From the IMG/VR virus record IMGVR_UViG_3300031473_000132, positions 1 to 51,974 of that record: 51,974 nt of DNA; one strand, 5' to 3'. Positions within the stretch are counted from its first letter, which is position 1. Each line of letters begins with the position of its first letter. A model generated the notes under the pieces. The model saw only the letters and a list, made by a program, of their open reading frames with translations, searched no databases and was not told the DNA's origin. Origin of the DNA: a virus. Taxonomy: Duplodnaviria > Caudoviricetes. The position numbers were made by a program, and so were the translations under genes. Of this stretch, positions 6,938 to 39,325 are shown piece after piece.

Positions 6938-7743
6938 CATTGCCAACCCCTTATTACCACGATGAGAACTCCGGCATCACGATCTATCACGGGGATTGCC
7001 GGGAAATTCTTCCGGACCTTGTCCCAGAGTCGGTCACGCTGTTATGGACTGATCCCCCATATGGTCATGCGAACCAGAATGGTGATCTTCAGTCAGCTAG
7101 AGTCGGCGTCAAGGGCGCCCGACAGCGACAAGCCGTGCCCATCCGTAACGATGATGCCTTATCAATGCGAGAAGTTGTAGACAAGGCGTTAGAACTGTCT
7201 ATCCCGCTTCTCAAGAAGGATTCGTGCTGCTGCTGCTGCTGCGGAGGAGGAGGCCCGGAACCTACGTTCGCGTGGCTTGCAGATCGTCTGGACCGAAAGG
7301 GGCTTTCATTTTTCCATGCATTGATTTGGGACAAGACCGCCCGTGGTCCGGGCTTGGGGTGGAGATTTCGTCGAGACTACGAAATGGTAATGGTTGCTCA
7401 CGCCAAAGGAGGAAAGTTGTCATGGAATCCCGAAGCTGCGGCGACGTCGAACATCCTCAGATTTGCACCCGAACCAAACATTTACCATCCAACAACCAAG
7501 CCTGTATCCATGTGTCGGTCTTTTATTGGCTGGCACACCAGGGCAAATGATTTTGTACTCGATCCCTTTATGGGATCGGGCACAACCCTGCGCGCTGCCA
7601 AGGACCTCGGACGCAAAGCGATCGGGATCGAGCTCGAGGAACGTTACGTTGAGATCGCGATCAAGCGGCTCCAGCAGAGCGTCTTACCCCTCGAGGAACC
7701 CCTGTCCGATCCTGTGAATGGAGCGCGTCATGCTCTGTTTTAG
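6934..7743 (+). CDS. N6-adenine/N4-cytosine DNA methyltransferase (beta class)
   Basis: IYHGDC, TDPPY, HPTTKP and VLDPFMGSGTT motifs. Confidence 0.93.
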   Translation: MTLPTPYYHDENSGITIYHGDCREILPDLVPESVTLLWTDPPYGHANQNGDLQSARVGVKGARQRQAVPIRNDDALSMREVVDKALELSIPLLKKDSCCCCCCGGGGPEPTFAWLADRLDRKGLSFFHALIWDKTARGPGLGWRFRRDYEMVMVAHAKGGKLSWNPEAAATSNILRFAPEPNIYHPTTKPVSMCRSFIGWHTRANDFVLDPFMGSGTTLRAAKDLGRKAIGIELEERYVEIAIKRLQQSVLPLEEPLSDPVNGARHALF

Positions 7744-8209
7744 TCATCACTTGCAGGTTTTCCAACGCGTTGTTGTGCCCATCTACGTCAATGTGGTGCA
7801 CAACCTCCTCGGGTGTGAGAAAGCGCCCCATGTGCTTCTCCATCACGAGCCGATGCTCCATGACGTATCCCTTACTGTCCGCGAACGGATGATGAGGTGT
7901 GAGACAAGCCCAGTATCCCCCGTTGCGTCCATACGTGATGCGGCCTTGGAACGTAGGGTGGTTCTCTCCTCGAATGTTGGCACTCTGCCACGCCCATTTA
8001 CATTCCAGCGAACAGAACTTCTGGGATCTCTTCCCGGTAGACGAGATATCCGCCCCGCATTGCCGACAGTGGTTAGCCGGTGTGCTTCCCCATCTGGCGG
8101 CTCGGTAGCAGTCACGAGAACAATACTTCGAGGTTTTTTCACGCCCGTATTCGGGGTGAAAAGGCTTGTTGCATTGGACGCATTCAAGCGTCAGTGTTTC
8201 TCTTTTCAT
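7661..8209 (-). CDS. Zn-finger HNH endonuclease, antisense to early operon, probably leaderless
   Basis: CxxC/YCSxxC repeats; GYVMEHRLVME..VHHIDVDGHNNALENL; TGCTATAAT 6 nt before ATG8209. Confidence 0.9.
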   Translation of the reverse strand: MKRETLTLECVQCNKPFHPEYGREKTSKYCSRDCYRAARWGSTPANHCRQCGADISSTGKRSQKFCSLECKWAWQSANIRGENHPTFQGRITYGRNGGYWACLTPHHPFADSKGYVMEHRLVMEKHMGRFLTPEEVVHHIDVDGHNNALENLQVMTKTEHDALHSQDRTGVPRGVRRSAGAA

Positions 8210-8299
8210 TGCCACATTATAGCATGCGAAGAGAAATACTGCGAGATCGCCGCACGCCGTCTTCGGCAGTCCGTGTTGCCGCTGGAAGGTGTCGCCTAA
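7730..8299 (+). other. Stop-free bridging frame opposite the HNH gene, ending in a second methyltransferase C-terminus
   Basis: GGAG before ATG7730; ends CEEKYCEIAARRLRQSVLPLEGVA with TAATG overlap to next gene. Confidence 0.45.
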
Positions 8300-8667
8300 T
8301 GGTTGCTGCATACGCCACCACCTTCCTGCCCGAGAACGGCAAGCGCGCCCTCACCCCCGACGAGCAACTGGATGTAAATGATGTCTTAGACGCGGCTCAA
8401 GATTGGCAAGCCGGCAAGCTCCCGTGGGAAGCCGCCGCCAACGTCGGGACGATCCTCTGCGAAGGCCGCCCGTCCTCCGGGTATTCGCGCTTCATCGCCT
8501 TATTGCTCACCCCGAAGACCGATCCCCGCCGGCGGGGATTGGAGGCGCTTGGCAGGCACCTCGACACCCAGCAGGGGCTGCGGGTGACCCCGCGCGGCAC
8601 GTTCTCGCAGCGCGACATCAACGAGCTCCACGAGTCCGAGCGCATCATGAAACGGAGAGCAGCATGA
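8299..8667 (+). CDS. Hypothetical phage protein
   Basis: GGAAGG RBS before ATG8299. Confidence 0.65.
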   Translation: MVAAYATTFLPENGKRALTPDEQLDVNDVLDAAQDWQAGKLPWEAAANVGTILCEGRPSSGYSRFIALLLTPKTDPRRRGLEALGRHLDTQQGLRVTPRGTFSQRDINELHESERIMKRRAA

Positions 8668-9095
8668 GCATCACACACAACGATCTCAGTGCATACATCA
8701 TCAAAGCCAGAAAAGCCTCGGGGCTTTCCCAACGAGCATTGGCAGACAAGGTGGGAATGTCCCGAGGTTACCTCTGTGATATCGAAAAGGGGCGTGTATC
8801 ACGACCTTCGCACGACATCATTCTTCGTATCGCAACGGAGGCCGGATGTGATGCCAAAGAGTTGGCACTGATTGCAATAGGGTTCAGTGCGGACAAGCCG
8901 GGCGAATGTACTCACGAGCACATCTCATGGGCAAATGCACGTACCCACGATCGAATCGCGTGCAAGGTGTGTGGAATCCATATCGCAAACGCGAATCCTC
9001 CCGAGAAGATGAACAGCTATCAGGCGTATCGACAAGCGAGGGGAATCTTTGCTGGTTATGGATCGCGACGTAACGCAAGAAGGGCCACAGCATGA
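8664..9095 (+). CDS. XRE-family HTH protein with C-terminal Cys/His motif
   Basis: ARKASGLSQRALADKVGMSRGYLCDIEKG. Confidence 0.85.
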   Translation: MSITHNDLSAYIIKARKASGLSQRALADKVGMSRGYLCDIEKGRVSRPSHDIILRIATEAGCDAKELALIAIGFSADKPGECTHEHISWANARTHDRIACKVCGIHIANANPPEKMNSYQAYRQARGIFAGYGSRRNARRATA

Positions 9096-9283
9096 CCACC
9101 CCCATCCGCTTCTACACCGACCGCGTGATCACCAAAGAGCGTGGCGGCCTACCTGAAGGCTCTCAGGCGGCCGCTGACGCCATCGAACGGGTCAAACAGC
9201 AGCTCAAGCCGAAGCGGGGCCGCAAACCGCGGGGCATCAGCCTGGTGGACGCACGGACAGGGAAGAAAGAGGTGACGCAATGA
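9092..9283 (+). CDS. Hypothetical phage protein
   Basis: ATGA overlaps on both sides. Confidence 0.6.
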   Translation: MTTPIRFYTDRVITKERGGLPEGSQAAADAIERVKQQLKPKRGRKPRGISLVDARTGKKEVTQ

Positions 9284-9531
9284 TCGCGTTCAATTTCGAG
9301 GAAGCAATCGGTTGGCAGGTGCTGCGAGCGGCGCAAGAGGCGGTCACGAACGCCCCCAAGGCGACCATGAATGAAACCGTGTTCATCGAAGTCAAGATTC
9401 ACGCGTACACCGATTCGTGGCCCGGCACGACTGAATCGGGTCGGTCCAAGTCGCGTCTGATCGGACACGCGTCGTGCGCGTATGTGCCAAGGAACGATCG
9501 GCCACGCATCGAGGAGGACGCAGCGTCATGA
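9280..9531 (+). CDS. Hypothetical phage protein
   Basis: GAGG RBS; ATGA overlaps. Confidence 0.6.
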   Translation: MIAFNFEEAIGWQVLRAAQEAVTNAPKATMNETVFIEVKIHAYTDSWPGTTESGRSKSRLIGHASCAYVPRNDRPRIEEDAAS

Positions 9532-9641
9532 TCCGCATCGCACTGGAAGTCCTCGGCCTGCTGATCTGCGGGGCGGTTGCCGGGTACGGCATCTTGTGGG
9601 GAATGGCGGTTGTCGGTTCGTATCTGATCGGAGGTTCTTGA
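9528..9641 (+). CDS. Small hydrophobic membrane peptide (37 aa)
   Basis: MIRIALEVLGLLICGAVAGYGILWGMAVVGSYLIGGS; overlaps neighbours on both sides. Confidence 0.55.
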   Translation: MIRIALEVLGLLICGAVAGYGILWGMAVVGSYLIGGS

Positions 9642-10750
9642 TGAATGAACACACGAATACGCCTGACTACGCCGAAATATCCGCGAAGATCGACGACCGC
9701 TGGGTCTCGTACGGGGATTGGGATGCGAACCCTGCCGGAGTCGAAGCGAAAGTCAGGCACGAGCTTGACCCGATCATTGCAGATATTCAACGGAGCCTGA
9801 TTGAGCGGATGATTGCGGATGTGTCTGTACAACGTGGACGATGGAACGGATGTAATCCCGGAGCCTACGCCTCCCATGATGGGACGTTCGATGATGCAAC
9901 TTGGGTCCTGGACGAACATGATATCGCTGATGCGATCCGAACCTACCTGCCCACCGAAGACGAGGACGATGATGAAGACACCCCGCCCGCCGTCGCGCCC
10001 GTGGGGGAGGACGTGAAGACCGTGCGTGACACGTTGCTTCGTGCGGTCAAGCGGTATACCGGCATCTACTGCACGAACGATGAGGGCTTTGGCGATGAAC
10101 TGATGTCGATTGCTCGGCAAGCCACCCCGCCCGCCGTCGCGAGAAATTATGGGCATATCGACTACTATGGTCCGCTGTGTGGACCGATCACCGCTGCTTC
10201 CGACATAGCCCCGCCCGCCGTCGCGGATGCCGGGGAGACGGGGGAAAAGACGATGTCTCGGTACAGCCGCGAAGATTACTCCGAACGGGAGATCGAAGAG
10301 ATGGAACGCGAGGATGCCGGGGAGACGGGGGAGGATGACCTGTTCGACTTCACGATCACCGGGACGCTTGAGGATGATCACAAGGAGATGCAGTCGGACA
10401 ATTCATTCAAGGGAGTTCTCTATCGTCTTGCGTACATGGAGGCACGAGACGATATCAATCGTGAAGAAGTGGCGGCGTTGCGGCGGGACGTGGAGGGTAT
10501 AGACAAATTACTTGGGTACTTCGTACATCCGCTCATCGGAGATTTCAGTGACATCCGCGAAAGAATCGAATCCCTCGAATCCCGCGAGCGCCCGAATGCG
10601 GGCACGATCAAGGTGACGGAGAAGATGCTGGGTGCATTCTTCGACAAGCTGACAACAGACGCGAAGAAGGGCCTGCACTGGACCGATGCGAAGTTTGCCA
10701 TCGAGGCCGCACTCGCGGCCAGAGAGATTGAAGGACGAAAAACCCTATGA
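9641..10750 (+). CDS. Acidic mosaic hypothetical protein with internal direct repeats
   Basis: GGAGG RBS; PPAVA x3 and DAGETGE x2. Confidence 0.7.
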   Translation: MNEHTNTPDYAEISAKIDDRWVSYGDWDANPAGVEAKVRHELDPIIADIQRSLIERMIADVSVQRGRWNGCNPGAYASHDGTFDDATWVLDEHDIADAIRTYLPTEDEDDDEDTPPAVAPVGEDVKTVRDTLLRAVKRYTGIYCTNDEGFGDELMSIARQATPPAVARNYGHIDYYGPLCGPITAASDIAPPAVADAGETGEKTMSRYSREDYSEREIEEMEREDAGETGEDDLFDFTITGTLEDDHKEMQSDNSFKGVLYRLAYMEARDDINREEVAALRRDVEGIDKLLGYFVHPLIGDFSDIRERIESLESRERPNAGTIKVTEKMLGAFFDKLTTDAKKGLHWTDAKFAIEAALAAREIEGRKTL

Positions 10751-10763
10751 ATCCAACGATTTA

Positions 10764-10845
10764 TGATATAATCAAAGTAACGAAATACGAGTGCTCCGGC
10801 GTGGTTGGACCCACCCGGAGCGCGTCACTGGAAGGTCTAATTCCA
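10764..10845 (+). promoter_or_regulatory. Nuclease-cassette leader copy A
   Basis: TGATATAAT..GCTCCGG-C-GTGG-TTGGAC-CCAC-CCGGAGC-GCGTCAC-TGGAAggtctaaTTCCA-ATG. Confidence 0.75.
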
Positions 10846-11499
10846 ATGAATCCTCAGGATACCTCATCCGACATCCCCTACGGGTATTGCCACTGCGGTT
10901 GCGGCCAGAAAACCTCGATCGCCCAAAACTCTGCACCACATCGAGGGTATCTTCGGGGCGAGCCATCCAAGTACATTGCAAATCACTTTCACGCGCCTAA
11001 TCGCCCAGCTACCGAACCTGAAGCACGATTCTGGAAGTTAGTTGACCGACGTGGTCCTAACCAGTGCTGGGAATTCAAGGGTTCAAAAGGCAGGAACGGG
11101 TATGGGCAGGTCTGGTCGTACGGAAAGATAATCCGAACACATCGATTTTCTTGGACCATCCACCACGGCCCGATTCCGGATGGAATGTTCGTCTGTCATC
11201 GTTGTGACAACCCGTCTTGTGTCAATCCGGATCACCTATTTCTAGGGACACATCTTGAGAACATGGCCGACATGACCCGGAAGGGTCGTGGGAGAAATTC
11301 AGGAGAAGGTCGTCCCGGAGAAAACAATCCGTGCCATATCCTCACCGAAGTAGACGTTCTTGCTATTCGTAATGACCCTGAATTGAGCAAGCTCTCACAA
11401 GTTGAGGTTGGCCTACGGTTCGGCGTCTCCCGCCAAACGGTTTCCGACATTCGGAGCGGGAAGCGGTGGCGATATCTGCTTGAAGAGGCCGGACGATGA
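10846..11499 (+). CDS. HNH endonuclease (CxCGCG N-terminus, HNH_3-type core, C-terminal HTH)
   Basis: YCHCGCG, RFWKLV..CWEF, HRFSW..VCHRCDNPSCVNPDHLFLGT..N; in-frame upstream ATG at 10747. Confidence 0.92.
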   Translation: MNPQDTSSDIPYGYCHCGCGQKTSIAQNSAPHRGYLRGEPSKYIANHFHAPNRPATEPEARFWKLVDRRGPNQCWEFKGSKGRNGYGQVWSYGKIIRTHRFSWTIHHGPIPDGMFVCHRCDNPSCVNPDHLFLGTHLENMADMTRKGRGRNSGEGRPGENNPCHILTEVDVLAIRNDPELSKLSQVEVGLRFGVSRQTVSDIRSGKRWRYLLEEAGR

Positions 11500-11642
11500 G
11501 CGAAGGGATCATCATGTTTGCCGCAGTCGTCACCCTCCTTTTGCTCATCGTCCTGTTTACAAACATGTTCAATGAAATTGCCGACCTGCGACATCGGGTC
11601 AATGACCTGGAGTCGAGCGCAAGAAGGGACGGTGGCACATGA
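11496..11642 (+). CDS. Small single-pass membrane protein (48 aa)
   Basis: MSEGIIMFAAVVTLLLLIVLF...; ATGA overlaps at both ends. Confidence 0.55.
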   Translation: MSEGIIMFAAVVTLLLLIVLFTNMFNEIADLRHRVNDLESSARRDGGT

Positions 11643-11905
11643 GCACCCGCATCGTCCGCGACAAGGCCGTTTACAACGGCGCTCCCATCATCGCTGGAAC
11701 GAGATGGCCCACGTCCAACGCTCGCAACTTCGGCTACGACGTGGATGCGATCGCATCCGCGTATCCGCATGTGAGCATCAGTCAGATCGAGGCGGCTATT
11801 TCATTCGAACGCAGTTGGCATCGCCGCCTGGAACACGCATGGTGGGCGCTGCGGCACCGGCTGGGCGCGTGGATCGCGGGATGGGATGGGCCGGGGGATG
11901 AATGA
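11639..11905 (+). CDS. DUF433-family protein
   Basis: RIVRDKAVYNGAPIIAGTR..IASAYPHVSISQIEAAISF. Confidence 0.8.
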   Translation: MSTRIVRDKAVYNGAPIIAGTRWPTSNARNFGYDVDAIASAYPHVSISQIEAAISFERSWHRRLEHAWWALRHRLGAWIAGWDGPGDE

Positions 11906-12305
11906 GCCGTTGATCGTCAACATTCCCGGCACGGTCACGCTGATGCATTCACCGAACGGCCGGGCGCATTGGCGCACGAAACACAAGCTGACCGCAGAAC
12001 TCCGGTACACGGCGCGTATGGCCACGATCGAAGCGGTTGGCGGCGATCCCAACGTGTGTTATCCGTTTCCGTCCTATCCGATCCGACTCGACTACACCGT
12101 GGGGTGGGAGTCCAGGCGGCGTCATTTTTGGGATGACGACAACTTTATTGGCGCCGCAAAATTGATCAGAGACGCCATCGCGTCCGTGCTCGGAATCGAT
12201 GATAGGCATTTCATCACTGGCAGCGTGACGCAGGAATACGACCCGGCCAAGCGCGGATACATCCTGGTCAGGATCGCCAGCGTCGCGGAGGAGGCAGCAG
12301 CATGA
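11898..12305 (+). CDS. RusA-like Holliday junction resolvase
   Basis: SPNGRAHW..DDDNFIGAAKLIRDAIA..IDDRHF acidic motif. Confidence 0.7.
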   Translation: MNEPLIVNIPGTVTLMHSPNGRAHWRTKHKLTAELRYTARMATIEAVGGDPNVCYPFPSYPIRLDYTVGWESRRRHFWDDDNFIGAAKLIRDAIASVLGIDDRHFITGSVTQEYDPAKRGYILVRIASVAEEAAA

Positions 12306-12727
12306 AGGCCATCAGCATCATCCAGCCATGGGCGTCTTTAATCGGCCTTGGTGAGAAACGGATCGAAACTCGCTCCTGGTCGACACACTACCGCGGACCT
12401 ATCGCGATCCACGCCTCGAAGGCAATACCCCGCGAGGTCCTGGAACTGGTCCATTCCACGCCTCACCTACGCCGAGCCCTCATACATTGTGGCGTCCACG
12501 CACTGGCGGACCTCCCGAGAGGGGGAATTGTCGCGACCGCGACGCTCGTCGACTGTGTTCGCATCGACAATCATTTCGACTTTACCGGATATCCCGAATA
12601 CGAGCGATCGCTTGGGTTTTACGCTGAAGGGCGGTTCGGCTGGATTATGGAGAACATTGCGGCGTTGCCTGACCTTGTTCCGGCCAAAGGCAATCTCGGT
12701 ATCTGGGAGTGGGAAGACGCAGCATGA
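12302..12727 (+). CDS. ASCH domain protein
   Basis: MKAISIIQPWASLI..GEKRIETRSW..YRGPIAIHAS..KGNLGIW. Confidence 0.92.
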   Translation: MKAISIIQPWASLIGLGEKRIETRSWSTHYRGPIAIHASKAIPREVLELVHSTPHLRRALIHCGVHALADLPRGGIVATATLVDCVRIDNHFDFTGYPEYERSLGFYAEGRFGWIMENIAALPDLVPAKGNLGIWEWEDAA

Positions 12728-13119
12728 TCGATCCCATTACTTTGGGCAAATACCACGACGAGCGGTGGGCAAAGGTATGGCGTTACATACGTCAATGGTG
12801 CTCTGGGTGGGAGTATCAGATCGCGCTTGCGCTCCTTGGATATACGCCACACATTGTCGATCGTTGGGCTGATGGCATTGCGCCACAACCAGACGATTTG
12901 AGTCTTGAGCAGTCTGCACGAATCAACAAGCTTGTGGAGGTTATCAACGCAAAGATGACGCGCAAGTATTGGGTGACGGGCAGCGGCCTGCGGTACGAAT
13001 GGCGAGAGGACAACAAGATAGTGGAAGTGCCGTGGACGACAGGTGACGATCACCCGGGGGACGTCGCACCGATAGCAGATCTCGAGGTATTTCGCCGAAA
13101 ACAGGTGGTGACACCATGA
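12724..13119 (+). CDS. Hypothetical phage protein
   Basis: ATGA overlap with ASCH gene. Confidence 0.6.
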   Translation: MIDPITLGKYHDERWAKVWRYIRQWCSGWEYQIALALLGYTPHIVDRWADGIAPQPDDLSLEQSARINKLVEVINAKMTRKYWVTGSGLRYEWREDNKIVEVPWTTGDDHPGDVAPIADLEVFRRKQVVTP

Positions 13120-13407
13120 CCACCATCGCAACCCGCCGCACTGCATGGCCAGCGTCCGGTGGGCGTGCGCGAAGCTGGCCGGGAGATGCGTAAAGCAGCC
13201 CTCCCAGACGACACTCCGGCCCTGATCGTGCGATGATGCCGACGTTGGCGGGCGGTTGTTGCCACTCCTCCCGCCGACGCCCGTCCGGGGCGGTTGGTGG
13301 ACGATAGCAGCCGCCCCGGACACCCTCACCCCCACTGGCCGTCTGCGCCGCAGAGAAAAGCAAGATAGAAGAAGTCAAAACACCAGGAGATTCGTGCTCC
13401 AAACCCC

Positions 13408-13437
13408 TTGACGTTGTTATATAACATGTTGTAATAT
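13408..13437 (+). promoter_or_regulatory. Sigma70-like promoter with palindromic operator in the spacer
   Basis: TTGACG-N18-TAATAT; TGTTATATAACA palindrome at 13415-13426. Confidence 0.7.
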
Positions 13438-13489
13438 ATACAGAGAGATGAGGGGAATGCCCTTACACAACAGCACAAAGGGAAGCGCA

Positions 13490-13807
13490 ATGATTCGATA
13501 CCACGAAGCCACTGATGCGAATCGTGTCGCCGAGCTGGTGGCAAGCATGGAAGTCAACGGCTGGCAAGGGTCGCCCTTGGTCACACTCGGTGATGGCGAG
13601 TTGTTGACCGGCGCGCACCGGCATACCGCCTACGTCCAAGTTTTTGATACGGATTACGGCATTCCAACCATCTCGCTCGACGACGTGTTCACCGAGGCGG
13701 GGCTTGATCTCGCGGGCGTCATGGAGGAGGAGCGGTGTGAGTTGATCTATGTGCTCGATCACCTCCCGGCCGATGTCCGCCAGGAGTACGGCATTGATAT
13801 CCACTAA
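13490..13807 (+). CDS. Stand-alone ParB/Srx-like domain protein
   Basis: VAELVASMEVNGWQGSPLV..LLTGAHRHTAY. Confidence 0.7.
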   Translation: MIRYHEATDANRVAELVASMEVNGWQGSPLVTLGDGELLTGAHRHTAYVQVFDTDYGIPTISLDDVFTEAGLDLAGVMEEERCELIYVLDHLPADVRQEYGIDIH

Positions 13808-14210
13808 GAGAACATGGACGTCTAGCCAGATCGTTGCCCTGCGGGACCGGCACGGCTGGTCTCAGCGGGAGATGGCCGAACACTTGACCGCTCACGATTC
13901 CAACCTGCGGACCGTCACGACCACAGTGAGCGGGTGGGAGCGAGGACATCGCTCGCCCGGAGCCCATGCCAGTTCCGCGCTGACGGCCGTCGCCTTGCAC
14001 GCGGGCTATCCCGTCACCGTGACCATGCACGACGGTCGGACCCGGTCCGGCACGCTCACGACGGAGTCCTCTGCCAGTTCCTACGGCTTGCCAGTCGTGG
14101 TGATTGGCGGCATGGCATACGGCTCCGGCGACATCAGTGACGTTGATGCCGGTGATGTGCCGGGTGGCATCCGCGACGCTGCCACCCGTGCGGGATACAT
14201 GATGCGATGA
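13794..14210 (+). CDS. XRE-like HTH protein
   Basis: IVALRDRHGWSQREMAEHL..TVSGWERGHRSP; AGGAG before TTG13794. Confidence 0.7.
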   Translation: MISTKRTWTSSQIVALRDRHGWSQREMAEHLTAHDSNLRTVTTTVSGWERGHRSPGAHASSALTAVALHAGYPVTVTMHDGRTRSGTLTTESSASSYGLPVVVIGGMAYGSGDISDVDAGDVPGGIRDAATRAGYMMR

Positions 14211-14217
14211 ATTCATC

Positions 14218-14769: not shown

Positions 14770-14827
14770 CCCATAGATCGAATTGGGACGGCGGTAACAG
14801 GTGCGGCAAGACTGGTTGGTAAAGGTA

Positions 14828-14857
14828 TTGACACATAACACCAGTGTGGTGTATATT
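14828..14857 (+). promoter_or_regulatory. Sigma70-like promoter with inverted repeat in the spacer
   Basis: TTGACA-N18-TATATT; ACACCA-GTG-TGGTGT at 14838-14852. Confidence 0.7.
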
Positions 14858-14914
14858 AATTACATCAGGAACGGGAAGCGATCCCGGCCACAATCACCGA
14901 GGGAGATGACGATA

Positions 14915-15181: not shown

Positions 15182-15237
15182 TCGTTCATCAGGGGAGCCA
15201 CGATCCGCTCCCCACGTTCAACCCGGAAAGGACCATC

Positions 15238-19785: not shown

Positions 19786-19920
19786 AATTATTCTCCCCAC
19801 TTCGGCGATAGGGAGCACCCCTGATGAGGTTGGGGTGTAGATATGTTTTCATCTCCGTGCCCTTTCGTTTTTGGCATCCAGGACTGTTGATATCCAAAAC
19901 TGTTGATTTGGCGGGGATTT

Positions 19921-20549: not shown

Positions 20550-20633
20550 CTCATCAGGGTCGCCCTCCTTTCTGCGGTACGGAGCCCCGCGCACGAGCAC
20601 GTCGCTGATGTAGATGCCCATCGCGTATTCCTT

Positions 20634-33200: not shown

Positions 33201-33948
33201 ACGATGTATCGGCCAGGTTGAGCATGATGTTGCGGAGCGCGGTGGCCCCGACCTCGCCCTTGATTCCGGCGTCCCCGAGAATGACCATCCCGGCCGCGAC
33301 GTCTTCCATTGGAATCCCGAGCGCCGCTGCCACCGGACCGGCACTCTTCAGCGCCAGCGCCCAGTCGTTGACGTCCAACGCACTCGCGTTCGCGCTTTGA
33401 GCGATCAGGTCCGTGGCGGTTGTGTAGTCCACGCCGAAGATGTTGACCGCCGCCGCCGCCGTTTCCGCTGCCAGCGGAACGTCTACCCCGGTCGCGTTCG
33501 CGAGTGCAAGGACTTGCTCGGTAGCGCCGTTGAGCACGTCAGGGAGGCTGGCGCCCGCCTTGATCATGATCTCCATCGCCTGCGCGGATTCGGTCGCGCT
33601 GAATGCGGTGTCCTTGCCGAGCCGGAGTGCCTCTTCACGCAGCTTGCCGATGTCCGATCCGGTCGCACCGGAGACCGACTGGACCGCGCTCATCTGTTGC
33701 TCGAACGAGGCGGCGCTCTTGACGGCAAAACCGAAGCCGCCCACCACCGCCGTGCCGAAGCCGACCATGCCGAGTCCGACCGCGCGGATCGATTGCTGGT
33801 TGCGCGTCGCCCAGCCCTGAAGGCCGGTCGCACTGCCGGACGTGGCGTCGAGGTTGCGCAGGCCCGCCCCGACCTGATTCAGCGCGGAAAGAGCGCCAGC
33901 AGCGTCGAGGTTGATGCGGCCTTCCGCGCTACCCAAACTATCTGTCAT
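27232..33948 (-). CDS. Tail tape measure protein (TP901-type core)
   Basis: FEQQMSAV..LREEALRLGKDTAFSATESAQAM..GIKGEVGATALRN; very long with tandem repeats; start ATG33948. Confidence 0.95.
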   Translation of the reverse strand: MTDSLGSAEGRINLDAAGALSALNQVGAGLRNLDATSGSATGLQGWATRNQQSIRAVGLGMVGFGTAVVGGFGFAVKSAASFEQQMSAVQSVSGATGSDIGKLREEALRLGKDTAFSATESAQAMEIMIKAGASLPDVLNGATEQVLALANATGVDVPLAAETAAAAVNIFGVDYTTATDLIAQSANASALDVNDWALALKSAGPVAAALGIPMEDVAAGMVILGDAGIKGEVGATALRNIMLNLADTSSEGSVALAGVGVSAYDTNGQFRGLEAITHDLAGTWSGLTQEQKLSLAQQVAGKDGAAAFTTIMDAQSKAVANNSDAFVDSKKRMTDTGTAAEQAAVRMNNFSGKLEQLKGSIETVAITIGSLLLPALTKIVEVITTVVNGFLNLPSGIQTAIAAFTGIAGVLALVGGGFLLLLPKILAVSTALRGVKDVETGLRSGGLISSIAPMIPVLLAAAAAAAIFYLAYKTNFLGFRDLINGVVDSVKNFVSNIKSAFDDLTGGGEGVTKLGNTLIHFKEAGLGMNPVVAIFHAIATALRAINGDNTPAFLVRLANGFDAVGNVVQSVIGYVQLFASVFGTLSQTMNPVSAALSAVAAVLAILSLRFPALAGVLGPLSSAFAFLSTAAQQFGDAIGKALSGDFSGALSSLLAGLGSVGSAFKNFGTGAKGAYDLAGKALDGLAKQFPGLAKVFTGLGQTARGAGNVISGAFHAVGSLLQGDFGGAIDGVKTLFTGLGQYITGIFGALFGVVGAAASGLRGLLGSAVDYLQGKFSAFSGTIGAIGGIFDGLIGIIGGLANAFSSLLQGDVSGFFSGLGDAATSAIELVKSGFTSLPTFIMEAFRAIPWTALFDGLKAAVSAIPGLLGDLGGVVMSWISAAAGAVDWSALVSGAGDIAGSIIGKLGDLAGAVGRWIADAASAVDFTGIVSGAKDIALEVVAKLGDLATAVGTWITNAATGVGDKFSTIADGAKDITGDIITKLGAFGAAAALWVLGGVQALVANLGSIASAVVSAAPEVVTQIVSKLGQFAAGAALWVLGGVQALASNLASIASAAVGAAPEIVTQIITKLGEFAGPAALWVLGGVRSIASNLASLASAVVGAVPEVVTSIFTKLGEFAGKAATWVLGGVQALVANLASLPSAIVSAVPEVVGQIFVKLGTFAAGAALWVLGGIQALVSNLASLPSAIVSAVPEVVTQIFTKLGTFAAGAALWVLGGVQALVSNLASLSSAIVAAVPEVVGQIFTKLGTFAAGAALWVLGGIQALVANLASLPSAIIAAVPEVVASIFTKLGTFAAGAAMWVLSGVQALVSNLASISGAVLGAVPEVVTQIFVKLGAFAAGAALWVLGGVQALVANLASLPSAIVSAVPEVVAQIFTKLGTFAAGAALWVLGGVQALVANLASLPSAVVGAVPDVVASIIAKLGSFAAAAARWVLTGIQALVANLASLPSAIVGAVPEVVGRIIQKLGQFGAAAARWVLGGVQALASNLAALPSAATGAVKDISGDVAKGLGNIKDAISTKIKDAVQGGVDAWTGAIGALKTIFSEVGDRLASLIDLSAITTAFDGMKGIISGIGDAINGVISKAQEASNKGYSLLQSGADFLTGSSGKKDDKGNAAPAPAIPNPANIADLQKAVDKLYGSLTTLNSGLNTVGSAISGLGGYINAFGIAVSSLNDGPLTTLNAGFPIVAATIAGFVGSTLGLMSGWSTAMTTFLTTLNSGPLTTLNAGFPIVSTTIATFVGATLTSMSGWSTGVTTFLTTVTTGLTTFSTAVTTMSVTVGATLTALATGFIMTGTLLTAAFTAWALGLTTFTMAVTLMATTVGISLTALATGFIMTGVLLTAAFLAWGLGMTAFELAVTTMSINVGVALTGLATGFIMTGTLITTALTAWALGLVTFDLAVSTMSINVGVSLTGLATGFITTGTLVASATVAMSSSVIAMTATVASALIVVAASATSGMATFTNAIRTGASSAASAMSSSIISMTATVASAMIVVGASGASGMNTFRSAVTSGAQQASSAFQSACSSISSAASSMASQVGSAASNAGNQLASGLGNGARNAAGQVQSALGAIPGIVSSIGASAAGAAYSAGANISSSFASGMYSALGAIQAAAGAMVAAADAAIRAKARIASPSKLFGKLGRFTGQGFEMGIRDMIPAVARASAALVAVPTGYGFGAVSPAAALWANAPASSGTSSTVNYYTTNQITQQPGEDGEQLARRIVQVMHQDYVDVNGMGR
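29416..30999 (-). repeat. Twelve 132-bp (44-aa) tandem repeats in tape measure gene
   Basis: LGxFAAGAALWVLGGVQALVxNLASLPSAIVxAVPEVVxxIFTK counted 12 times. Confidence 0.9.
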
Positions 33949-33983
33949 GGCAGCTCTTCCAGTACTAAGGAAGGGCCACCAAA

Positions 33984-34064
33984 TGGTATAATTGAGGAAC
34001 ACAAAAGGCCGGAGCACTGCGCAAACAGCCCCCGGCATGACACCTTAGCGATAGGACCGCCAAG
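33984..34064 (+). promoter_or_regulatory. Nuclease-cassette leader copy D
   Basis: TGGTATAAT..GCCGGAGCACTG-CGCAAA-CAGCCCCGGC-ATGACAC-CTTaGCGataggacCGCcAAG-ATG. Confidence 0.75.
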
Positions 34065-34883
34065 ATGCCCCCCCAGTTTACTCAGCTTCCTCTTATTCCA
34101 TCCACTCCAATTGACCCATACTCGCGTTCCGGTAAGGTGTTCTCGTGTGAATTGTGTGGTACACCATTCTACCGATACCTTGCGGACATTCGAAAAGCTG
34201 AATCTCGCGGAGCTCGTATTAGGTTCTGTTCGAACATCTGTGCTCGCAAGGAAAAGGCTTCCACAAACAGAAAATGCACCTGTGAGCAGTGTGGTGAATC
34301 GTTCATCGTCTGGGCTAGTGTGTTCATTCATGCAGTGGAGTGGGGTAACGGTGCCGGCAGATTCTGTTCCGCAAATTGTCGCGATGTTTTTATGGCAGAG
34401 GCTCGCCGCACCGCGATAATGGTTCCGTGCATGACGTGTGGCAAACTGCACCGCAGAATCCCCGCACTGATCAGAGAGCGTATGTTTTGCTCTGCCAAGT
34501 GCATGGGCGCGCAAGTCCAAGCGTGGGCCCGCTTCAGCTTTTACGGCATAGGGGGGAAGCGCGCCGATATCGGAAACCACTACTTCCGAAGTCGATGGGA
34601 AGCGAATATCGCTCGAATGCTTAACGCTATGAATATGACGTGGGAATACGAACCGCGAACCTTCGACTGCGCTACTGGGTTCTACACACCGGATTTTCTT
34701 ATCGATGGAAAGTATTGGATTGAAGTGAAGGGGTACCTGACGCCGATTGCGAGAGCGAAGATGGATGCGTTTCGCATGCAATATCCCGACGAGCGCCTCG
34801 TTGTTATCGATCGTGCCATGTACAAAACTTTGCAGCGCGAATGGGAACCCCGTATTCCTGAATGGGAGCACTCTGCTACTTGA
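34065..34883 (+). CDS. Zn-finger PD-(D/E)XK endonuclease, antisense to late operon
   Basis: Three CxxC..FCSxxC units; FRSRWEANIA..WEYEP..YTPDF..IEVKGY. Confidence 0.88.
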   Translation: MPPQFTQLPLIPSTPIDPYSRSGKVFSCELCGTPFYRYLADIRKAESRGARIRFCSNICARKEKASTNRKCTCEQCGESFIVWASVFIHAVEWGNGAGRFCSANCRDVFMAEARRTAIMVPCMTCGKLHRRIPALIRERMFCSAKCMGAQVQAWARFSFYGIGGKRADIGNHYFRSRWEANIARMLNAMNMTWEYEPRTFDCATGFYTPDFLIDGKYWIEVKGYLTPIARAKMDAFRMQYPDERLVVIDRAMYKTLQREWEPRIPEWEHSAT

Positions 34884-34906
34884 TTCGGTTGTGGGGGGCG
34901 CCAAAG

Positions 34907-35001
34907 AGCGCGAGATGTGCATGCAAAAGCTCCGATGCTGGAGCCTCGCCTGCGCATCTCGCGCTACGGAGGACTTATACTGATCTGCGAGAATTATACC
35001 A
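34907..35001 (-). promoter_or_regulatory. Internal leftward promoter with structured leader
   Basis: TGGTATAAT at 35001-34993; GCGCGAGATG..CATCTCGCGC stem enclosing GCTCC-agcatc-GGAGC-TTTT. Confidence 0.6.
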
Positions 35002-35042
35002 TTGATGCGAATCGCAGCGGTGACGAGCGAAGGGATCCGGGT

Positions 35043-35537
35043 ATGGGGTTGTTCGGCAAGAAGAAGACAAAAAGCGATCGTGAAATATACCTAGAATCAC
35101 TCTCGAAAACATATCAGAAAATTCTGCATAAAGATGCCATACTGGAAACGGTAAACAACTTGATGCCTGGAGAATCAATCGTGATTGTGATTCAGGGATT
35201 GTGGGATTCAGCGATCATTGCCACAGAGCATCGAGTGTTCATCTACAAACGCGGCATGATGGGAGGGGCCATGGGTGGTTCCAAGCTCATTACGTGGGAC
35301 ATGGACGTTATCCATGGAGTGCAAATGGAGTTCGGCAAGAATACCGGCTTCATATCATTACAAACGCCGAATGCAACAGTAGCTGATATGAGTTACTGGG
35401 CGACCGATGCCACATCGCCGCAAAAAGCGCCCAACGCAATCGCGATCAACAAGCCGCTCAAGAATCAAGCAAATATCGGTGTCATTCAACTCCGGACGCT
35501 TCTCTTTCAGCGAAAGCATATAAGCACTTCCGATTGA
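35043..35537 (+). CDS. Moron-like gene encoding a bacterial PH-domain-like protein
   Basis: Lower GC, opposite strand; AIIATEHRVFIYKRG..IHGVQMEFGKNTGFISL. Confidence 0.7.
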   Translation: MGLFGKKKTKSDREIYLESLSKTYQKILHKDAILETVNNLMPGESIVIVIQGLWDSAIIATEHRVFIYKRGMMGGAMGGSKLITWDMDVIHGVQMEFGKNTGFISLQTPNATVADMSYWATDATSPQKAPNAIAINKPLKNQANIGVIQLRTLLFQRKHISTSD

Positions 35538-35607
35538 AGGTAGGCCTTCGACGCGGGAATGACCCCGCATCGATCTCTTCCAATACTTATCCCGGCTCAA
35601 TCCCTTT

Positions 35608-35955
35608 CTACAACAGCGCCGTGGGCAAGTGCGACAACGCTTCGGACGCTGGCAACGTCACGTCACCAGGCGCATCCTCATCGACGTCGAACAACAATTG
35701 GAACATCGTGTACTTCGGCACCTGAATCACCGTGCTGCCCTTCGGCGGCGCCTTCGGCATCGAAACGACCTTGTCCACCAGTTCGTCGCGACGATTCTCG
35801 ATCACCCGCGCCAGCGACATCACCGCCCGGTCGAAATCGTAGGCCGTCGTGGGCGAATAGCCGTTCGCCTCAAGTCGCATCCGGTCGGACGGCATCTGTC
35901 CGTACCGCTGACAGAGCTGGTCGAGGTCCCACACTTCGAGCCGGTTGCTCAGGAA
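35608..35955 (-). CDS. Tail assembly chaperone C-terminal extension (frameshift product)
   Basis: FLSNRLEVWDLDQLCQRYGQMPSD..AYDFDRAV in +1 frame of the upstream chaperone. Confidence 0.6.
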   Translation of the reverse strand, partial: FLSNRLEVWDLDQLCQRYGQMPSDRMRLEANGYSPTTAYDFDRAVMSLARVIENRRDELVDKVVSMPKAPPKGSTVIQVPKYTMFQLLFDVDEDAPGDVTLPASEALSHLPTALL

Positions 35956-36418
35956 ACGTGGCAAACTGCTTCGCCTCCACGCCACTCGTGCCGAAGCTGC
36001 GCAGCATGTATTCCCGGCGATCCCGCGAATCGACCTCATCGACACTGATCTGCGTGTCCTCATTCGTGACCACGTCCACGACCTGCGGTTCGATCCAGCC
36101 GAGCTTCACCAGCGCGATCCCGATCTCGTATTCGCGGTTCAGGACCTCGTCACCGGGCAGACCGGCGAACGGGTTGGCCTCATCGTCCAGCTCTTCGGAG
36201 GGCTTGCCGCGCAACGTCGCGCTTGCCGCAATCGACTTGTAGATCATCTGCTGGAGTTCGGACGGGAATGTGCCAATGATCGCGTGGTCGGTGATGTCGA
36301 GATCTCGGACACGCACGACCGCACCGCTCGGCGCCTCCCACTCCGTTCCGGCGTTGCGTCGCTGGCGGTAGGCGCTGGCGGTGCTGATCTGTCGTGGCTC
36401 CTGGGTCTTGACTGGCAT
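35870..36418 (-). CDS. Tail assembly chaperone
   Basis: Between major tail and tape measure; PSGAVVRVR and WIEPQV motifs. Confidence 0.7.
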   Translation of the reverse strand: MPVKTQEPRQISTASAYRQRRNAGTEWEAPSGAVVRVRDLDITDHAIIGTFPSELQQMIYKSIAASATLRGKPSEELDDEANPFAGLPGDEVLNREYEIGIALVKLGWIEPQVVDVVTNEDTQISVDEVDSRDRREYMLRSFGTSGVEAKQFATFPEQPARSVGPRPALSAVRTDAVRPDAT

Positions 36419-36478
36419 GAAAGGGTTCCCCTCTGCGCTCGTCGCGCTCTGGAGTAAAGGCAAACGGTCAATCACTCG

Positions 36479-37009
36479 TTAGATGAGCGTGGTCCAGGTT
36501 GCGTACGCCTCATAGGTGTACAGCTCCTTGGTCGTGTCGGCCGGGATCGCCTTGGCGCTCACGCTGAACTCGGCGAACTCGTTGTCCTTGAAACCGAAGT
36601 CCGGTCCGCCCTGCCACGCCACTTTGGGATAGGTGATCCGGGCCGCGCCGCCATCGCTGTCCTTCGTGCGGGTCTGGCCCACGAGCTTGTAATAAGCCAC
36701 GACGTCGTCGCTCTTGCGTACCAGTTTGGTGACGGCGGTCGTGCCGGTCCCCGCAGTGGAGACGGTACCTCCGGCACTCGCGGCAAGTGACACCGGGGTA
36801 TAGGCACCCAGGATGATCGTGAGGTCGAGCGAGTTGAATGTCGCGGCCGAGGCGATCACGCTATCGTCACCCCGGTTCTCGATCGTATCGATATTGGCGC
36901 TCTGTTCGATGGATTTGACGGCGACAATGTCCACGAGTGATCCGGCGACGCCTGCGACGTACGGATAGGCCGCCGCGTCCTGCAAGCTAAATGGTTGTGT
37001 TCCTGGCAT
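36479..37009 (-). CDS. Major tail (tube) protein
   Basis: 176 aa, ENRGDD motif, synteny; GGAGG RBS. Confidence 0.75.
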   Translation of the reverse strand: MPGTQPFSLQDAAAYPYVAGVAGSLVDIVAVKSIEQSANIDTIENRGDDSVIASAATFNSLDLTIILGAYTPVSLAASAGGTVSTAGTGTTAVTKLVRKSDDVVAYYKLVGQTRTKDSDGGAARITYPKVAWQGGPDFGFKDNEFAEFSVSAKAIPADTTKELYTYEAYATWTTLI

Positions 37010-37232
37010 GTGCGTGTTCCTCCGGCCCTGCGGCCTGTACTGGTATGGATTCCTGTGCGGCGCGGGTCACGAACGAGCCCGTCGCCAGATCGAAGACGTG
37101 GATCACCGCCTCTCCTTCGGCGGTGCGACAGAACCGATCCGCGCACCGCACTTCGAGCATGCCCGTCGCCTCGACCGCCCACCCCCACGTATTGCCGGGA
37201 CAGCGGAGCGGCTTGTAGCGACGACCGCTCAC
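36987..37232 (-). CDS. Small Cys-containing protein, weakly Com-like
   Basis: PLRCPG..MLEVRCADRFC. Confidence 0.5.
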   Translation of the reverse strand: MSGRRYKPLRCPGNTWGWAVEATGMLEVRCADRFCRTAEGEAVIHVFDLATGSFVTRAAQESIPVQAAGPEEHAHARNTTI

Positions 37233-37615
37233 ACCCGCACCACGAGGATGTCGTCATATACGCGAAACGCCTGTCGGTGTACCGGATGCATCCGCATCAG
37301 CACCTCGATGTCGTGCGACTCCATCTCGACCTCGAAGACGAACGGCCCGAAGACGTACGTACGGCTGAGACCATGTTCCGGTCCGAGCGTCAGTTGCGTC
37401 CGGCCTGGTACGCGCGCGAACCCCTGCATCTGGCGCTTGCGTTCCTGGTCCGTCAATTCCCGCCGCAACAGGGCCCGTTCGCGCAAATCCTGCTTGCGTT
37501 GCTCGCCAGATGACCGTATCGAGGCGGCGAGCATCTTCTGCACGTCGGGATAGGCATATGGTGAAAGCAGTCCAAGGAACTCGACACGTCGAATGCTTGT
37601 CGCGACAGCGTCCAC
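37229..37615 (-). CDS. Hypothetical tail-region protein
   Basis: GTG37615 just after upstream stop; GTGA overlap downstream. Confidence 0.6.
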   Translation of the reverse strand: MDAVATSIRRVEFLGLLSPYAYPDVQKMLAASIRSSGEQRKQDLRERALLRRELTDQERKRQMQGFARVPGRTQLTLGPEHGLSRTYVFGPFVFEVEMESHDIEVLMRMHPVHRQAFRVYDDILVVRV

Positions 37616-37616
37616 G

Positions 37617-37787
37617 CTACTTGCCCGTGCTCTTCGGATCGGTCTTCGGAGCGGGCTTCGACTCGTCGTCGGCGGTCTGGTACGGTTCCGGATCGCCGAA
37701 GTTGACACTCACCCCGGACGGCAACGGCGTGCCGTTCTTCAGCGCTTCCTCGACCTGCTTCTTCACTGCGTCACTGAGCTTCGCCAT
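37617..37787 (-). CDS. Small hypothetical protein (MAKLSDAVKK...)
   Basis: AGGAGG RBS. Confidence 0.65.
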   Translation of the reverse strand: MAKLSDAVKKQVEEALKNGTPLPSGVSVNFGDPEPYQTADDESKPAPKTDPKSTGK

Positions 37788-37788
37788 G

Positions 37789-38262
37789 TCACTGGCCTCC
37801 TGCGATATGCCGCACCGTTTGGACGCGGTAGCGGCGAAAGGTATTCCAGACATCACCGGGCAGTTCATCCGCTCTCAACGGCCGGGCCCGGTAGCCGGTC
37901 GCCGCGATGTCCGCGTTGCCGATCTGCACACCGTGCAGCAGTTCCATCACCCGCTGGTCGGCGGGGTCGAACGTCGCGGCCATCTGTGCACGTTCCGCGT
38001 AGAAGTAGCATTCCGGCCACAGGTCGGAATCGAGCCGCCGTTCGGGATTTCGGCCCACCGGCGAGTCAACTTCCTGCGGCTCGAGAAGAACGATTGTGGG
38101 TTTGAGCCGCTTGACGCCCGTCACCGGATTGGGCTGCCATGCCGCGCCCGTCACCGGATCGGTTGGCGAGAGCGGCTGATCGTAAATCCCGCCCACAAGG
38201 ATTGATGAAAGCAGAGCGTCTTCTCTCAAAATCCTTAGGATTTCGGAAAGAACGTAGCTCAT
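37789..38262 (-). CDS. Tail terminator-like protein
   Basis: ILRILREDALLSSILVGGIY; synteny after HK97 gp10-like gene. Confidence 0.6.
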   Translation of the reverse strand: MSYVLSEILRILREDALLSSILVGGIYDQPLSPTDPVTGAAWQPNPVTGVKRLKPTIVLLEPQEVDSPVGRNPERRLDSDLWPECYFYAERAQMAATFDPADQRVMELLHGVQIGNADIAATGYRARPLRADELPGDVWNTFRRYRVQTVRHIAGGQ

Positions 38263-38280
38263 ACCGAAATCCCGGTGGGG

Positions 38281-38357
38281 TATAATTGAGACAACGAAAA
38301 GCCGACGCGGTGGTGAGACACCCGTCGGCACGGCACATCAGTGATTGGACCACCAAC
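38281..38357 (+). promoter_or_regulatory. Nuclease-cassette leader copy E
   Basis: TATAAT..GCCGACG-C-GGTG-GTGAGA-CACC-CGTCGGC-ACGGCAC..GTGattggacCAC..ATG. Confidence 0.75.
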
Positions 38358-38963
38358 ATGCCTGCCAAGGGTACCACCGTCGTTACCAAGATCAAAAGAA
38401 CCTGTGCATTTTGTGGCGCTCCTTTCGAGATTTATCCTTCTCAGCTTCGATGGGGAGCTCGGAAGTTCTGTACTCGTAAGTGCGACAACCTTTCTCGCAT
38501 CCAGCCGCTTGAAGAGCGGTTTTGGAGCAAGGTTGACCGTAGTGGCGGTCCGAACGCTTGCTGGATGTGGATGGACCACAAATGGGGCCCGATGAGATAT
38601 GGCGGGTTCTACGTCGCCAAGCATGAGCATGTTTACGCACACCGCTTCGTCTGGGAATTGACGCATCAAGCGATCTCCGACGGTCAGTTTGTGTGCCACG
38701 TCTGCGACACCCCGGCTTGCGTGAACCCCGCACATCTCTTTCTTGGTTCCGCGAGAGACAATGTTCGAGATATGATCTCGAAGCGTCGCAATCAACACGG
38801 AGAACAACATCACAAGGCGCGTCTGACCGAGATTGATGTCATTGCCATTCGAGACATTTACGCACTGGGTAAAATGAATCAATACGAATTGGCACAACGA
38901 TTCAATGTGGGTCAACGCACAATTGGCGATATTGTGCTGCGGAAGACGTGGACGCATGTCTAA
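38358..38963 (+). CDS. Zn-finger HNH endonuclease, antisense to late operon
   Basis: CAFC..FCTRKC; RFWSKV..CWMW; AHRFVW..VCHVCDTPACVNPAHLFLGS..N; C-terminal HTH. Confidence 0.92.
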   Translation: MPAKGTTVVTKIKRTCAFCGAPFEIYPSQLRWGARKFCTRKCDNLSRIQPLEERFWSKVDRSGGPNACWMWMDHKWGPMRYGGFYVAKHEHVYAHRFVWELTHQAISDGQFVCHVCDTPACVNPAHLFLGSARDNVRDMISKRRNQHGEQHHKARLTEIDVIAIRDIYALGKMNQYELAQRFNVGQRTIGDIVLRKTWTHV

Positions 38964-38968
38964 CCCTT

Positions 38969-39325
38969 TCACCGGATCAATTGTTGCAATGACGCAAACA
39001 CGGCTGCATACGATCTTTGGAGTGCCGGAGTTATCGCCGCAAATCTCCCAGCGTTTTTGCGCTCTAGGTATATCGAGTAGGGCGCACCGCCAGAAATGAC
39101 GATGACCGCACCAACGGCGAGGCGAAATGCTCGCCCCAAAATGCTTCGACGGGCCAACCCCGTATGGTCCTGCCAAGGAGCTGACGACCGAGCGTCGTTT
39201 GCGATCCGTGACGCCCACTCGGTCGCCAGTGCGTAGACAGCGGCCAACAACCTTTTGGCGTAGCTCGTCACCCTGTCCGCCATAGATCCCGGCGACGTCT
39301 GCCACGTCACGTTTGCGCCTGGCAT
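38969..39325 (-). CDS. HK97 gp10-like tail completion protein
   Basis: APWQDHTGLARRSI..YSIYLE..FAAITPAL. Confidence 0.75.
   Translation of the reverse strand: MPGANVTWQTSPGSMADRVTSYAKRLLAAVYALATEWASRIANDARSSAPWQDHTGLARRSILGRAFRLAVGAVIVISGGAPYSIYLERKNAGRFAAITPALQRSYAAVFASLQQLIR

Follow-up and report, generated by a model that had tools for sequence, protein, structure and literature searches.

The window analysed here is the whole of the IMG/VR provirus record IMGVR_UViG_3300031473_000132 (51,974 bp, about 60% GC), a siphovirus-type prophage of about 52 kb. PHROG matches divide the window into two gene blocks, an early/replication block on the plus strand (1-16151) and a late block on the minus strand (16425-51974). 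Four nuclease genes oppose the direction of the block in which they lie, and a fifth, an HNH gene at 10846-11499, runs along its block. Each of the four antisense genes is spanned on the operon strand by a stop-free frame, here called a bridge. The data show that, depending on orientation, the nuclease genes have lost just the codons whose antisense reads as a stop in the operon-strand frame (TTA, CTA and TCA), the frame itself being placed between a neighbour's stop and the start of the next gene.

The four nuclease cassettes and their bridges

All four antisense genes are real nucleases, three of the HNH type and one endonuclease I/VII-like. HNH-1 lies at 7661-8209 on the minus strand (182 amino acids; PF13392 HNH_3, E 5e-10, with additional matches to PHROG HNH families). 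The PHROG matches align only from residues 30-41 onwards in the long open reading frame (ORF) at 7661-8311, and the N-terminus MKRETLTLECVQC resembles the N-termini of the other cassettes, so that ATG 8209 is most likely the start. A predicted -10 box, TGCTATAAT, is found at 8216-8221 on the minus strand, and its spacing of 8 nt from the ATG suggests a near-leaderless mRNA. An 18-nt inverted repeat (arms 8192-8209 and 8224-8241, within 8192-8241) spans both the start codon and this -10 box.

The other three nucleases are encoded on the plus strand, within the late block. HNH-2 (20010-20549, 179 amino acids, HNH_3 E 5e-12) is preceded by the -10 box TGGTATACT at 19924-19929 and a leader of about 80 nt; a database protein of 179 amino acids, P0001, agrees with this start. 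Directly upstream of its -10 box is a tandem 16-nt repeat, TTGGCATCCAGGACTG / TTGATATCCAAAACTG, at 19871-19902, which could be an operator. Endo-3 (34065-34883, 272 amino acids) combines zf-FCS repeats (PF06467, E 3e-6) with an endonuclease I/VII-like domain (PF05367, endonuclease I, E 3e-5, under the Pfam cut-off), and is further identified by PHROG resolvase/endonuclease matches down to 1e-13 and by 31 homologues. Its -10 box, TGGTATAAT, is located at 33987-33992 and is followed by a leader of 72 nt. HNH-4 (38358-38963, 201 amino acids, HNH_3 E 3e-7, PHROG_1872 E 2e-27) has its -10 box, GGTATAATTGA, at 38281-38286, again followed by a leader. HNH_3 matches above the Pfam cut-off were obtained with the long ORFs at 7661-8311 (minus), 19824-20549 (plus) and 38286-38963 (plus), as well as with the sense HNH gene.

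Aligning the upstream regions of HNH-2, Endo-3 and HNH-4 brought out a common layout, a -10 box (GGTATAATTG or GGTATACTTG) plus a leader of about 70-80 nt that ends in GGACCNCCAAG-ATG-CC, and it is this alignment that places the starts at 20010, 34065 and 38358. The refined starts of the three HNH genes (ATG 8209, 20010 and 38358) are thus later than those first taken in a preliminary description of the window. The leaders (19930-20009, 33993-34064, 38287-38357, and 4790-4868 in the homologous locus L208) have a GC-rich hairpin in common and all finish in a conserved GGACC..CAA-ATG; they may act as a translational control element for the nucleases. All four proteins begin with zinc-finger CxxCG...F...(F/Y)CSxxC repeats, which the sense HNH protein lacks. 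Judged by these N-terminal repeats and by the promoter and leader anatomy that three of them share, the four antisense nucleases are one cassette family whose catalytic ends differ; the proteins are mutually about 33-43% identical.

TATAAT or TATACT -10 boxes upstream of all four genes are predicted, from sequence only, to be expression signals of their own. A generic promoter and terminator scan missed the extended -10 boxes and returned no convincing terminator after the nucleases, and exact-seed repeat searches found no target-site duplications flanking the cassettes. The cassettes show traits of free-standing homing endonucleases, namely nuclease domains, their own -10 boxes and the lack of an intein domain in the bridges; no intron search was run.

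The four bridges reported in the preliminary description are all present: bridge 1 at 7730-8299 on the plus strand (189 codons), and on the minus strand bridge 2 at 19788-20621 (277 codons), bridge 3 at 33945-34922 (325 codons) and bridge 4 at 38259-38972 (237 codons from a GTG, or 232 from ATG 38957). Coordinate arithmetic places each of them codon-in-register with its nuclease, and in this register the number of antisense stops equals the number of TTA, CTA and TCA codons in the nuclease (2, 0, 0 and 0 over the longest nuclease ORFs). The remaining two antisense frames of each nuclease carry 5-15 stops each. None of the four bridges matched Pfam (E ≤0.01) or PHROG, and none contains a Hint/intein domain.

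The junctions of the bridges with the neighbouring genes were also as previously described. Bridge 1 ends in TAATG (8297-8301) on the next gene's ATG 8299, bridge 2 ends in TAA followed by a 2-nt gap and TTG 19785, and bridges 3 and 4 end in ATGA overlaps, at 33948-33945 on the present tape-measure ATG 33948 and at 38262-38259 on ATG 38262, respectively. These two overlapped starts have weak Shine-Dalgarno sequences (-3.3 and -4.7 kcal/mol vs a median of -5.8). At the other end, bridge 1 starts at GGAG-N5-ATG 7730, 14 nt within the methylase end, bridge 2 at AAGGA-N7-ATG 20621, 12 nt past the stop of orf262, and bridge 3 at GGAG-N7-ATG 34922 with no upstream gene adjoining, while bridge 4 starts either at GTGA 38972, overlapping the stop of orf118, or at AAGGG-N6-ATG 38957. 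Bridge 2 shares its frame with orf262, from which it is separated by a TGA and four codons (20621-20636), as if it were a former read-through extension.

All four bridges continue through the -10 boxes of their nucleases. With the refined nuclease starts, 30-74 codons of each bridge cover promoter, leader and flanking DNA, not nuclease codons; for these outer stretches, shuffling gave probabilities of 0.045 to 0.75 of being open. The C/G ratio of the operon-strand RNA is 1.00-1.10 in the bridges vs 0.83-0.98 in the flanking genes, a difference that was considered as a hint of Rho sites and set aside as too weak.

Codon depletion and its dependence on orientation

Over the refined coding sequences of the four nucleases, only one TTA, CTA or TCA occurs in 830 codons. 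The preliminary description had stated that these codons are absent from the overlapped nuclease sequence, which holds within the bridges; HNH-1 retains a single TCA at 7715-7717, just outside bridge 1. Synonymous resampling with the codon usage of all other genes predicted 7.6 such codons (P of at most one, 0.0044), resampling with the usage of genes with low GC content at third codon positions (GC3) predicted 17.8 (P 3.5e-7), and a Poisson fit to 91 sense-oriented homologues predicted 18.5 (P 1.8e-7). The caution originally attached to the bridges, that in-register antisense ORFs are a common artefact of GC-rich DNA, does not account for them, as the depletion exceeds all three null models. 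The nucleases are not short of A-ending codons overall (18% of their third positions are A), and TCT, CTT and TTG stand in for the depleted codons.

GC3 separates the nucleases from other genes that lack in-register stops. Zero counts among the 60 provisional genes of the window were found in three of the four nucleases (GC3 0.54-0.58, over their longest ORFs) and in five of the 56 others, all five with GC3 of at least 0.76. The eight other genes with GC3 below 0.62 each contain 2-12 stops, and none has a zero count; the four nucleases have GC3 of 0.52-0.59. The portal-like gene (GC3 0.82) has no TTA, CTA or TCA in 506 codons, and opposite it lies a shadow ORF of 618 amino acids (46683-48539, plus strand), which is an ordinary GC-rich artefact and contrasts with the bridges.

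Two internal controls in the window behave as had been reported. The sense HNH paralogue (10846-11499, plus strand) contains eight TTA, CTA or TCA codons in 216; HNH-4, which is 43% identical to it, contains none in 200. The other control is a moron encoded antisense at 35043-35537 (plus strand), which has six in-register stops in 163 codons and is unbridged.

Close relatives of the phage were sought by several routes. Megablast and blastn searches of phage records returned short HNH matches only, a major-capsid query had no match among viral, genome or metagenome contigs, and a pattern search with the promoter and leader found no relative. Single-protein queries retrieved two distant loci for HNH-2 and none for Endo-3. 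As no close phage relative was found, the general claim about orientation was tested on homologues of the nucleases instead. Family A2, built on the HNH-1/HNH-2 alignment, comprised the best 80 of at least 579 viral and the best 80 of at least 582 metagenome matches; family A3 (HNH-4/sense HNH alignment) comprised 43 fetched loci, and family A4 (Endo-3 alignment) the best 80 of 497 matches. ORFs running off a contig end or too short were left out, and duplicates were removed by C-terminal identity, which left 141, 37 and 57 unique loci in A2, A3 and A4, respectively (235 in total). Orientation was assigned from the strand of both neighbours in crude self-trained gene calls, and 67 'mixed' and 18 'nested' loci stood outside the comparison. 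A frame was taken as open if the in-register antisense frame covered at least 90% of the nuclease ORF.

This comparison of sense and antisense homologues, which the preliminary description had proposed as a check, bore out its expectation. The frame is open in three of the 136 sense-flanked homologues, whose GC3 is 0.61-0.75, and in 8 of the 14 antisense-flanked ones (Fisher's exact P 8.4e-8). Depletion is absent from the sense-oriented set, with 1277 TTA, CTA or TCA codons in 28148, and sense homologues at the GC3 of the window nucleases have about 0.023 such codons per codon. Several of the open antisense-flanked cases have low GC3: L152 (GC3 0.19) has no stops where 10.5 are expected, L064 (GC3 0.44) none where 7.1 are expected, L028 (GC3 0.39) one, at an end, for 6.7 expected, and L025 (GC3 0.28) three, all at the ends, for 10.1 expected. 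With GC3 of 0.19-0.44 in some of the open cases, chance shadow frames are very unlikely there. PHROG matches support genuine minus-strand neighbours at several of the open antisense loci.

The placement of the frame recurs as well. The distance between the bridge stop and the start called for the next gene is -5 to +14 nt in seven of the nine antisense loci whose frame is open or nearly so, and in L025, L028, L088, L090, L115 and L208 the bridges stop on downstream starts. Two of these, L088 and L115, are short contigs that carry the GGTATAATTGA promoter of the window, and their bridges end on the next start in ATGA and TGATG, respectively; the bridge of L090 (GC3 0.25) ends in ATGA. L208 is a different, high-GC phage, whose Endo-3 homologue (404 amino acids, with a leader that is likewise homologous) is encoded antisense immediately before the tape-measure gene. 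Its bridge of 461 codons extends from an ATGA overlap with the upstream stop to a TGATG overlap with the tape-measure start. Together, the depletion in the window and its dependence on orientation in homologues make it well supported that selection keeps the operon-strand frame open across the inserts, as had originally been proposed.

Apparent insertion sites at the ends of host genes

At least two of the cassettes appear to lie within the terminal codons of host genes, one at the 3' end of the methylase gene and the other at the 5' end of the tape-measure gene. The DNA methyltransferase (6934-7743, plus strand, PHROG_67, E 6e-46) belongs to an early block that also encodes RecT-like, ParB-like and RusA proteins. 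A segment of its C-terminus, EERYVEIAIKRLQQSVLPLEE (7636-7698, plus strand), lies within the live gene, and a diverged duplicate, EEKYCEIAARRLRQSVLPLEGVA, forms the C-terminus of bridge 1 (8228-8299, plus strand) and closes on an ancestral-looking stop that overlaps the next gene. The two copies are identical at 15 of 21 residues and differ at synonymous sites, the duplication being visible at the protein level only. Because the tail of bridge 1 matches the live methylase C-terminus, cassette 1 appears to sit in the methylase 3' end together with a duplicated end piece. The live methylase stop at 7743 precedes the end of bridge 1, and the TAATG at that end looks like the old methylase stop.

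The late block encodes the terminase large subunit (48508-50043), the major head protein (40361-41443), the major tail protein (36479-37009), the tape-measure protein (27232-34038 as the longest ORF) and tail proteins, all assigned by PHROG. Counted from ATG 33948, the tape-measure gene (27232-33948) is very long, with about 2238 codons; the longest-ORF start at 34038, which would overlap the Endo-3 leader, is probably not the true one. A variant contig from the rock-metagenome run X7 joins position 33916 to 34882 at a depth of 20, the form with the cassette having 10; additional letters may lie at the joint. The skipped 965 nt (33917-34881), a length not divisible by 3, mark the likely extent of cassette 3. 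The joined variant reads MHISRSLAPPTTES-INLDAAG..., with ATG 34922 in frame with tape-measure codon 12. This suggests that ATG 34922, where bridge 3 now begins, was the original tape-measure start, and that the cassette brought with it a new ribosome-binding site (RBS), ATG 33948 and 11 new tape-measure codons on which bridge 3 terminates. These apparent positions within host gene ends would account for the use of host stop and start signals by the bridges.

Further features accompany these sites. An operon-strand -10 box, TGGTATAAT (34993-34998, minus strand), lies directly beyond the unbridged moron, with ATG 34922 a further 70 nt downstream, and may restart late transcription there. It is identical to the Endo-3 -10 box, and the two promoters form the arms of a perfect 12-nt inverted repeat, AATGGTATAATT (33982-33993 and 34992-35003). 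A second variant joint in X7 connects 38177 to 39269, where letters may likewise intervene; orf118 is no duplicate of the next gene. Run X7 also contains a diverged strain, about 85-95% alike and more deeply covered, over 35235-35890 and 36365-37800, in which 197-letter stretches of the moron and tail-gene regions have been exchanged. Among the homologues, an 87-amino-acid gene upstream of the antisense HNH in L010 (5110-5373) matches only the first half of PHROG_1167 (3-86 of 169) and looks like a host gene split by insertion.

Relation to known systems and interpretation

Homing-endonuclease insertions that remain free of stop codons are already known from the hidden HNH of mycobacteriophage ShiLan and from inteins with antisense-encoded endonucleases, and the bridges of the window are a variant of these. 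In ShiLan, the HNH is described as hidden out of frame on the same strand of a DNA methylase gene whose protein continues through the insert on both sides (PMC11855218). Shared with that case, as it is described there, are an HNH of the same family, a stop-free host-strand frame, the lack of a splicing motif and a methylase target (PMC11855218); HNH-2 is 34% identical to ShiLan gp65. In the window, however, the nuclease lies on the opposite strand and in register, and the open frame is a separate ORF between the neighbours' stop and start. A common insertion site for HNH-1 and ShiLan was considered and rejected, as the window methylase shares only an N-terminal motif with gp65 and the site differs.

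Inteins whose homing endonuclease is encoded antisense have been reported (Gorbalenya 1998, Gogarten 2002, cited in bioRxiv 10.1101/2025.01.02.630785). As portrayed in that source, they resemble the cassettes in having about 0.6-1 kb readable on both strands and an opposite-strand nuclease with its own promoter (bioRxiv 10.1101/2025.01.02.630785). Relatives of HNH-1 and HNH-2 were indeed found in the antisense-intein layout inside terminase genes. Unlike inteins, the bridges have no Hint/intein domain, do not continue a host protein in frame at both ends, are bounded by stop and start codons and involve no splicing. In Aeh1, mobE reportedly splits nrdA, giving a gene in pieces through insertion of a homing endonuclease. 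The likeness to that case is an endonuclease gene inside a host gene whose function is kept from separately translated pieces; the window inserts differ in displacing and replacing only a few terminal codons, with the intervening DNA remaining translatable on the host strand.

The free-standing T4-type homing endonuclease genes (seg and mob) are described as having to fit in with host expression and to spare their neighbours, with a UAAUGA start/stop overlap at mobE and an antisense segD among the cases given (PMC2988022). The cassettes resemble them in being promoter-bearing nuclease genes that occupy the gaps between conserved host genes or lie at their ends, but differ from seg and mob, in the form described there, in that each antisense cassette has an open frame on the operon strand (PMC2988022). 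They also appear, unlike seg and mob, to bring replacement gene ends. Literature searches found no account of an antisense free-standing endonuclease cassette bridged by a separate ORF that runs from stop to start.

The reading that we consider probable is that free-standing nuclease cassettes sit against the direction of the operon, that selection holds the whole cassette stop-free, and that translation is relayed across the insert. Cassettes would insert at gene boundaries or within a few codons of the end or beginning of a host gene, and selection would clear stops from the nuclease codons, leader and promoter in the register-matched operon-strand frame. Starting where the upstream gene stops (for bridge 3, at the old host start) and finishing on the downstream start codon, each bridge would let ribosomes on the operon mRNA make a meaningless 'relay' peptide across the insert and terminate precisely at the start of the next gene. 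Rho and RNases would then find no long stretch bare of ribosomes, and termination-reinitiation coupling would be kept. We infer, accordingly at a lower level than for the open frame itself, that the bridges are translated and that their translation protects from Rho-dependent polarity and decay while maintaining reinitiation. The selfish gene would in this way be cheap to its host, with neither RNA nor protein splicing. The poor Shine-Dalgarno sequences at the two starts joined to bridges 3 and 4 by ATGA overlaps speak weakly for this mechanism.

Several observations weigh against this relay. Six of the 14 antisense-flanked homologues are not open; one of these is L056, whose antisense HNH (3299-3874), wedged between terminase and portal, has 13 in-register stops and is unbridged. 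The moron at 35043-35537 is likewise unbridged, beside cassette 3 in the same late operon. The genes downstream of the bridges in L025, L028, L088 and L090 have strong Shine-Dalgarno sequences, so that coupling is not obviously needed there, and in the window the Shine-Dalgarno sequences at the bridge starts (-4.5 to -5.8 kcal/mol) are average, equalled by 22-32% of random ATGs. Three of the cassettes share a leader, and the open frames over these leaders are therefore not three independent events. The orientation classes rest on crude gene calls and best-match subsets, with 67 of the 235 loci mixed. Finally, in 18 of the 141 unique loci of the HNH-1/HNH-2 family, the nuclease is nested antisense within a long host ORF, in most cases a terminase intein.

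The last observation leads to the main rival explanation, which we regard as unlikely. The stop-free antisense frame may be a trait carried over from residence in host sequence that is translated (in terminase inteins, for example, or as in-frame insertions of the ShiLan type), or may have been needed only at landing in a gene end, in which case bridge translation would now be useless. Fifteen of the nested host ORFs were scanned and gave six terminase domains and seven intein/Hint-type matches, mostly under the Pfam cut-off. The location of two window cassettes within host gene ends, the position of bridge 2 in the frame of orf262, only a TGA and four codons away, and the existence of unbridged antisense cases fit this explanation as well. 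However, in 11 of 15 nested loci on viral contigs the frame used by the host is the other antisense one (frame 3), whereas the open free-standing cases are all in register. At about 33-43% protein identity among the window cassettes, synonymous sites are saturated, yet all four frames are open. Moreover, the bridges end exactly on downstream starts, both in the window and in the six homologous loci named above.

Chance shadow ORFs of GC-rich DNA are an extremely improbable source of the bridges. The portal gene demonstrates that a zero count with a long shadow ORF can arise in this genome, as do the other non-nuclease genes with zero counts (five of 56 in all), but these have GC3 of at least 0.76, and at the 0.52-0.59 of the nucleases none of the eight other genes reaches zero. 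The depletion (P 0.004 to 2e-7) is dependent on orientation and is not seen in sense homologues of the same GC3. It is also very improbable that the bridges are protein genes in their own right, encoding for example a regulator of the nuclease or an immunity factor. The ATG starts of the bridges do have moderate Shine-Dalgarno sequences, and bridge 3 is preceded on the operon strand by a -10 box of its own. Nevertheless, no Pfam or PHROG match was obtained for any of the four, and each has the sequence that the antisense of its nuclease imposes, the nucleases being four different sequences. No more relatedness is seen among the bridges of L025, L028, L152 and L208, the absence of stops being the sole common feature.

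Tentatively, and with slightly less than even confidence, we extend the relay reading to a third, splicing-free route into essential operons beside introns and inteins. Here, a cassette would insert backwards with a built-in relay frame and replacement gene ends (the RBS, ATG and 11 codons of the tape-measure gene, and the spare methylase C-terminus), and ribosomes would restart on the next gene; this would be an adaptive design common to unrelated phages and to both the HNH and the endonuclease VII-like families. The four cassettes in one phage, together with a likely cassette-free allele from the same habitat, make a good experimental system. Automated gene prediction may pick out the nuclease or, instead, the bridge; for HNH-2, the database protein is the 179-amino-acid form. 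If the relay reading is true, an antisense nuclease with no TTA, CTA or TCA codons and a bridge stopping on the next start would serve as an annotation signature. It would also provide a testable case of selection on an antisense frame, countering the dismissal of frame -1 ORFs as artefacts, and would explain how selfish nuclease genes persist amid the structural operons of phages without introns or inteins.

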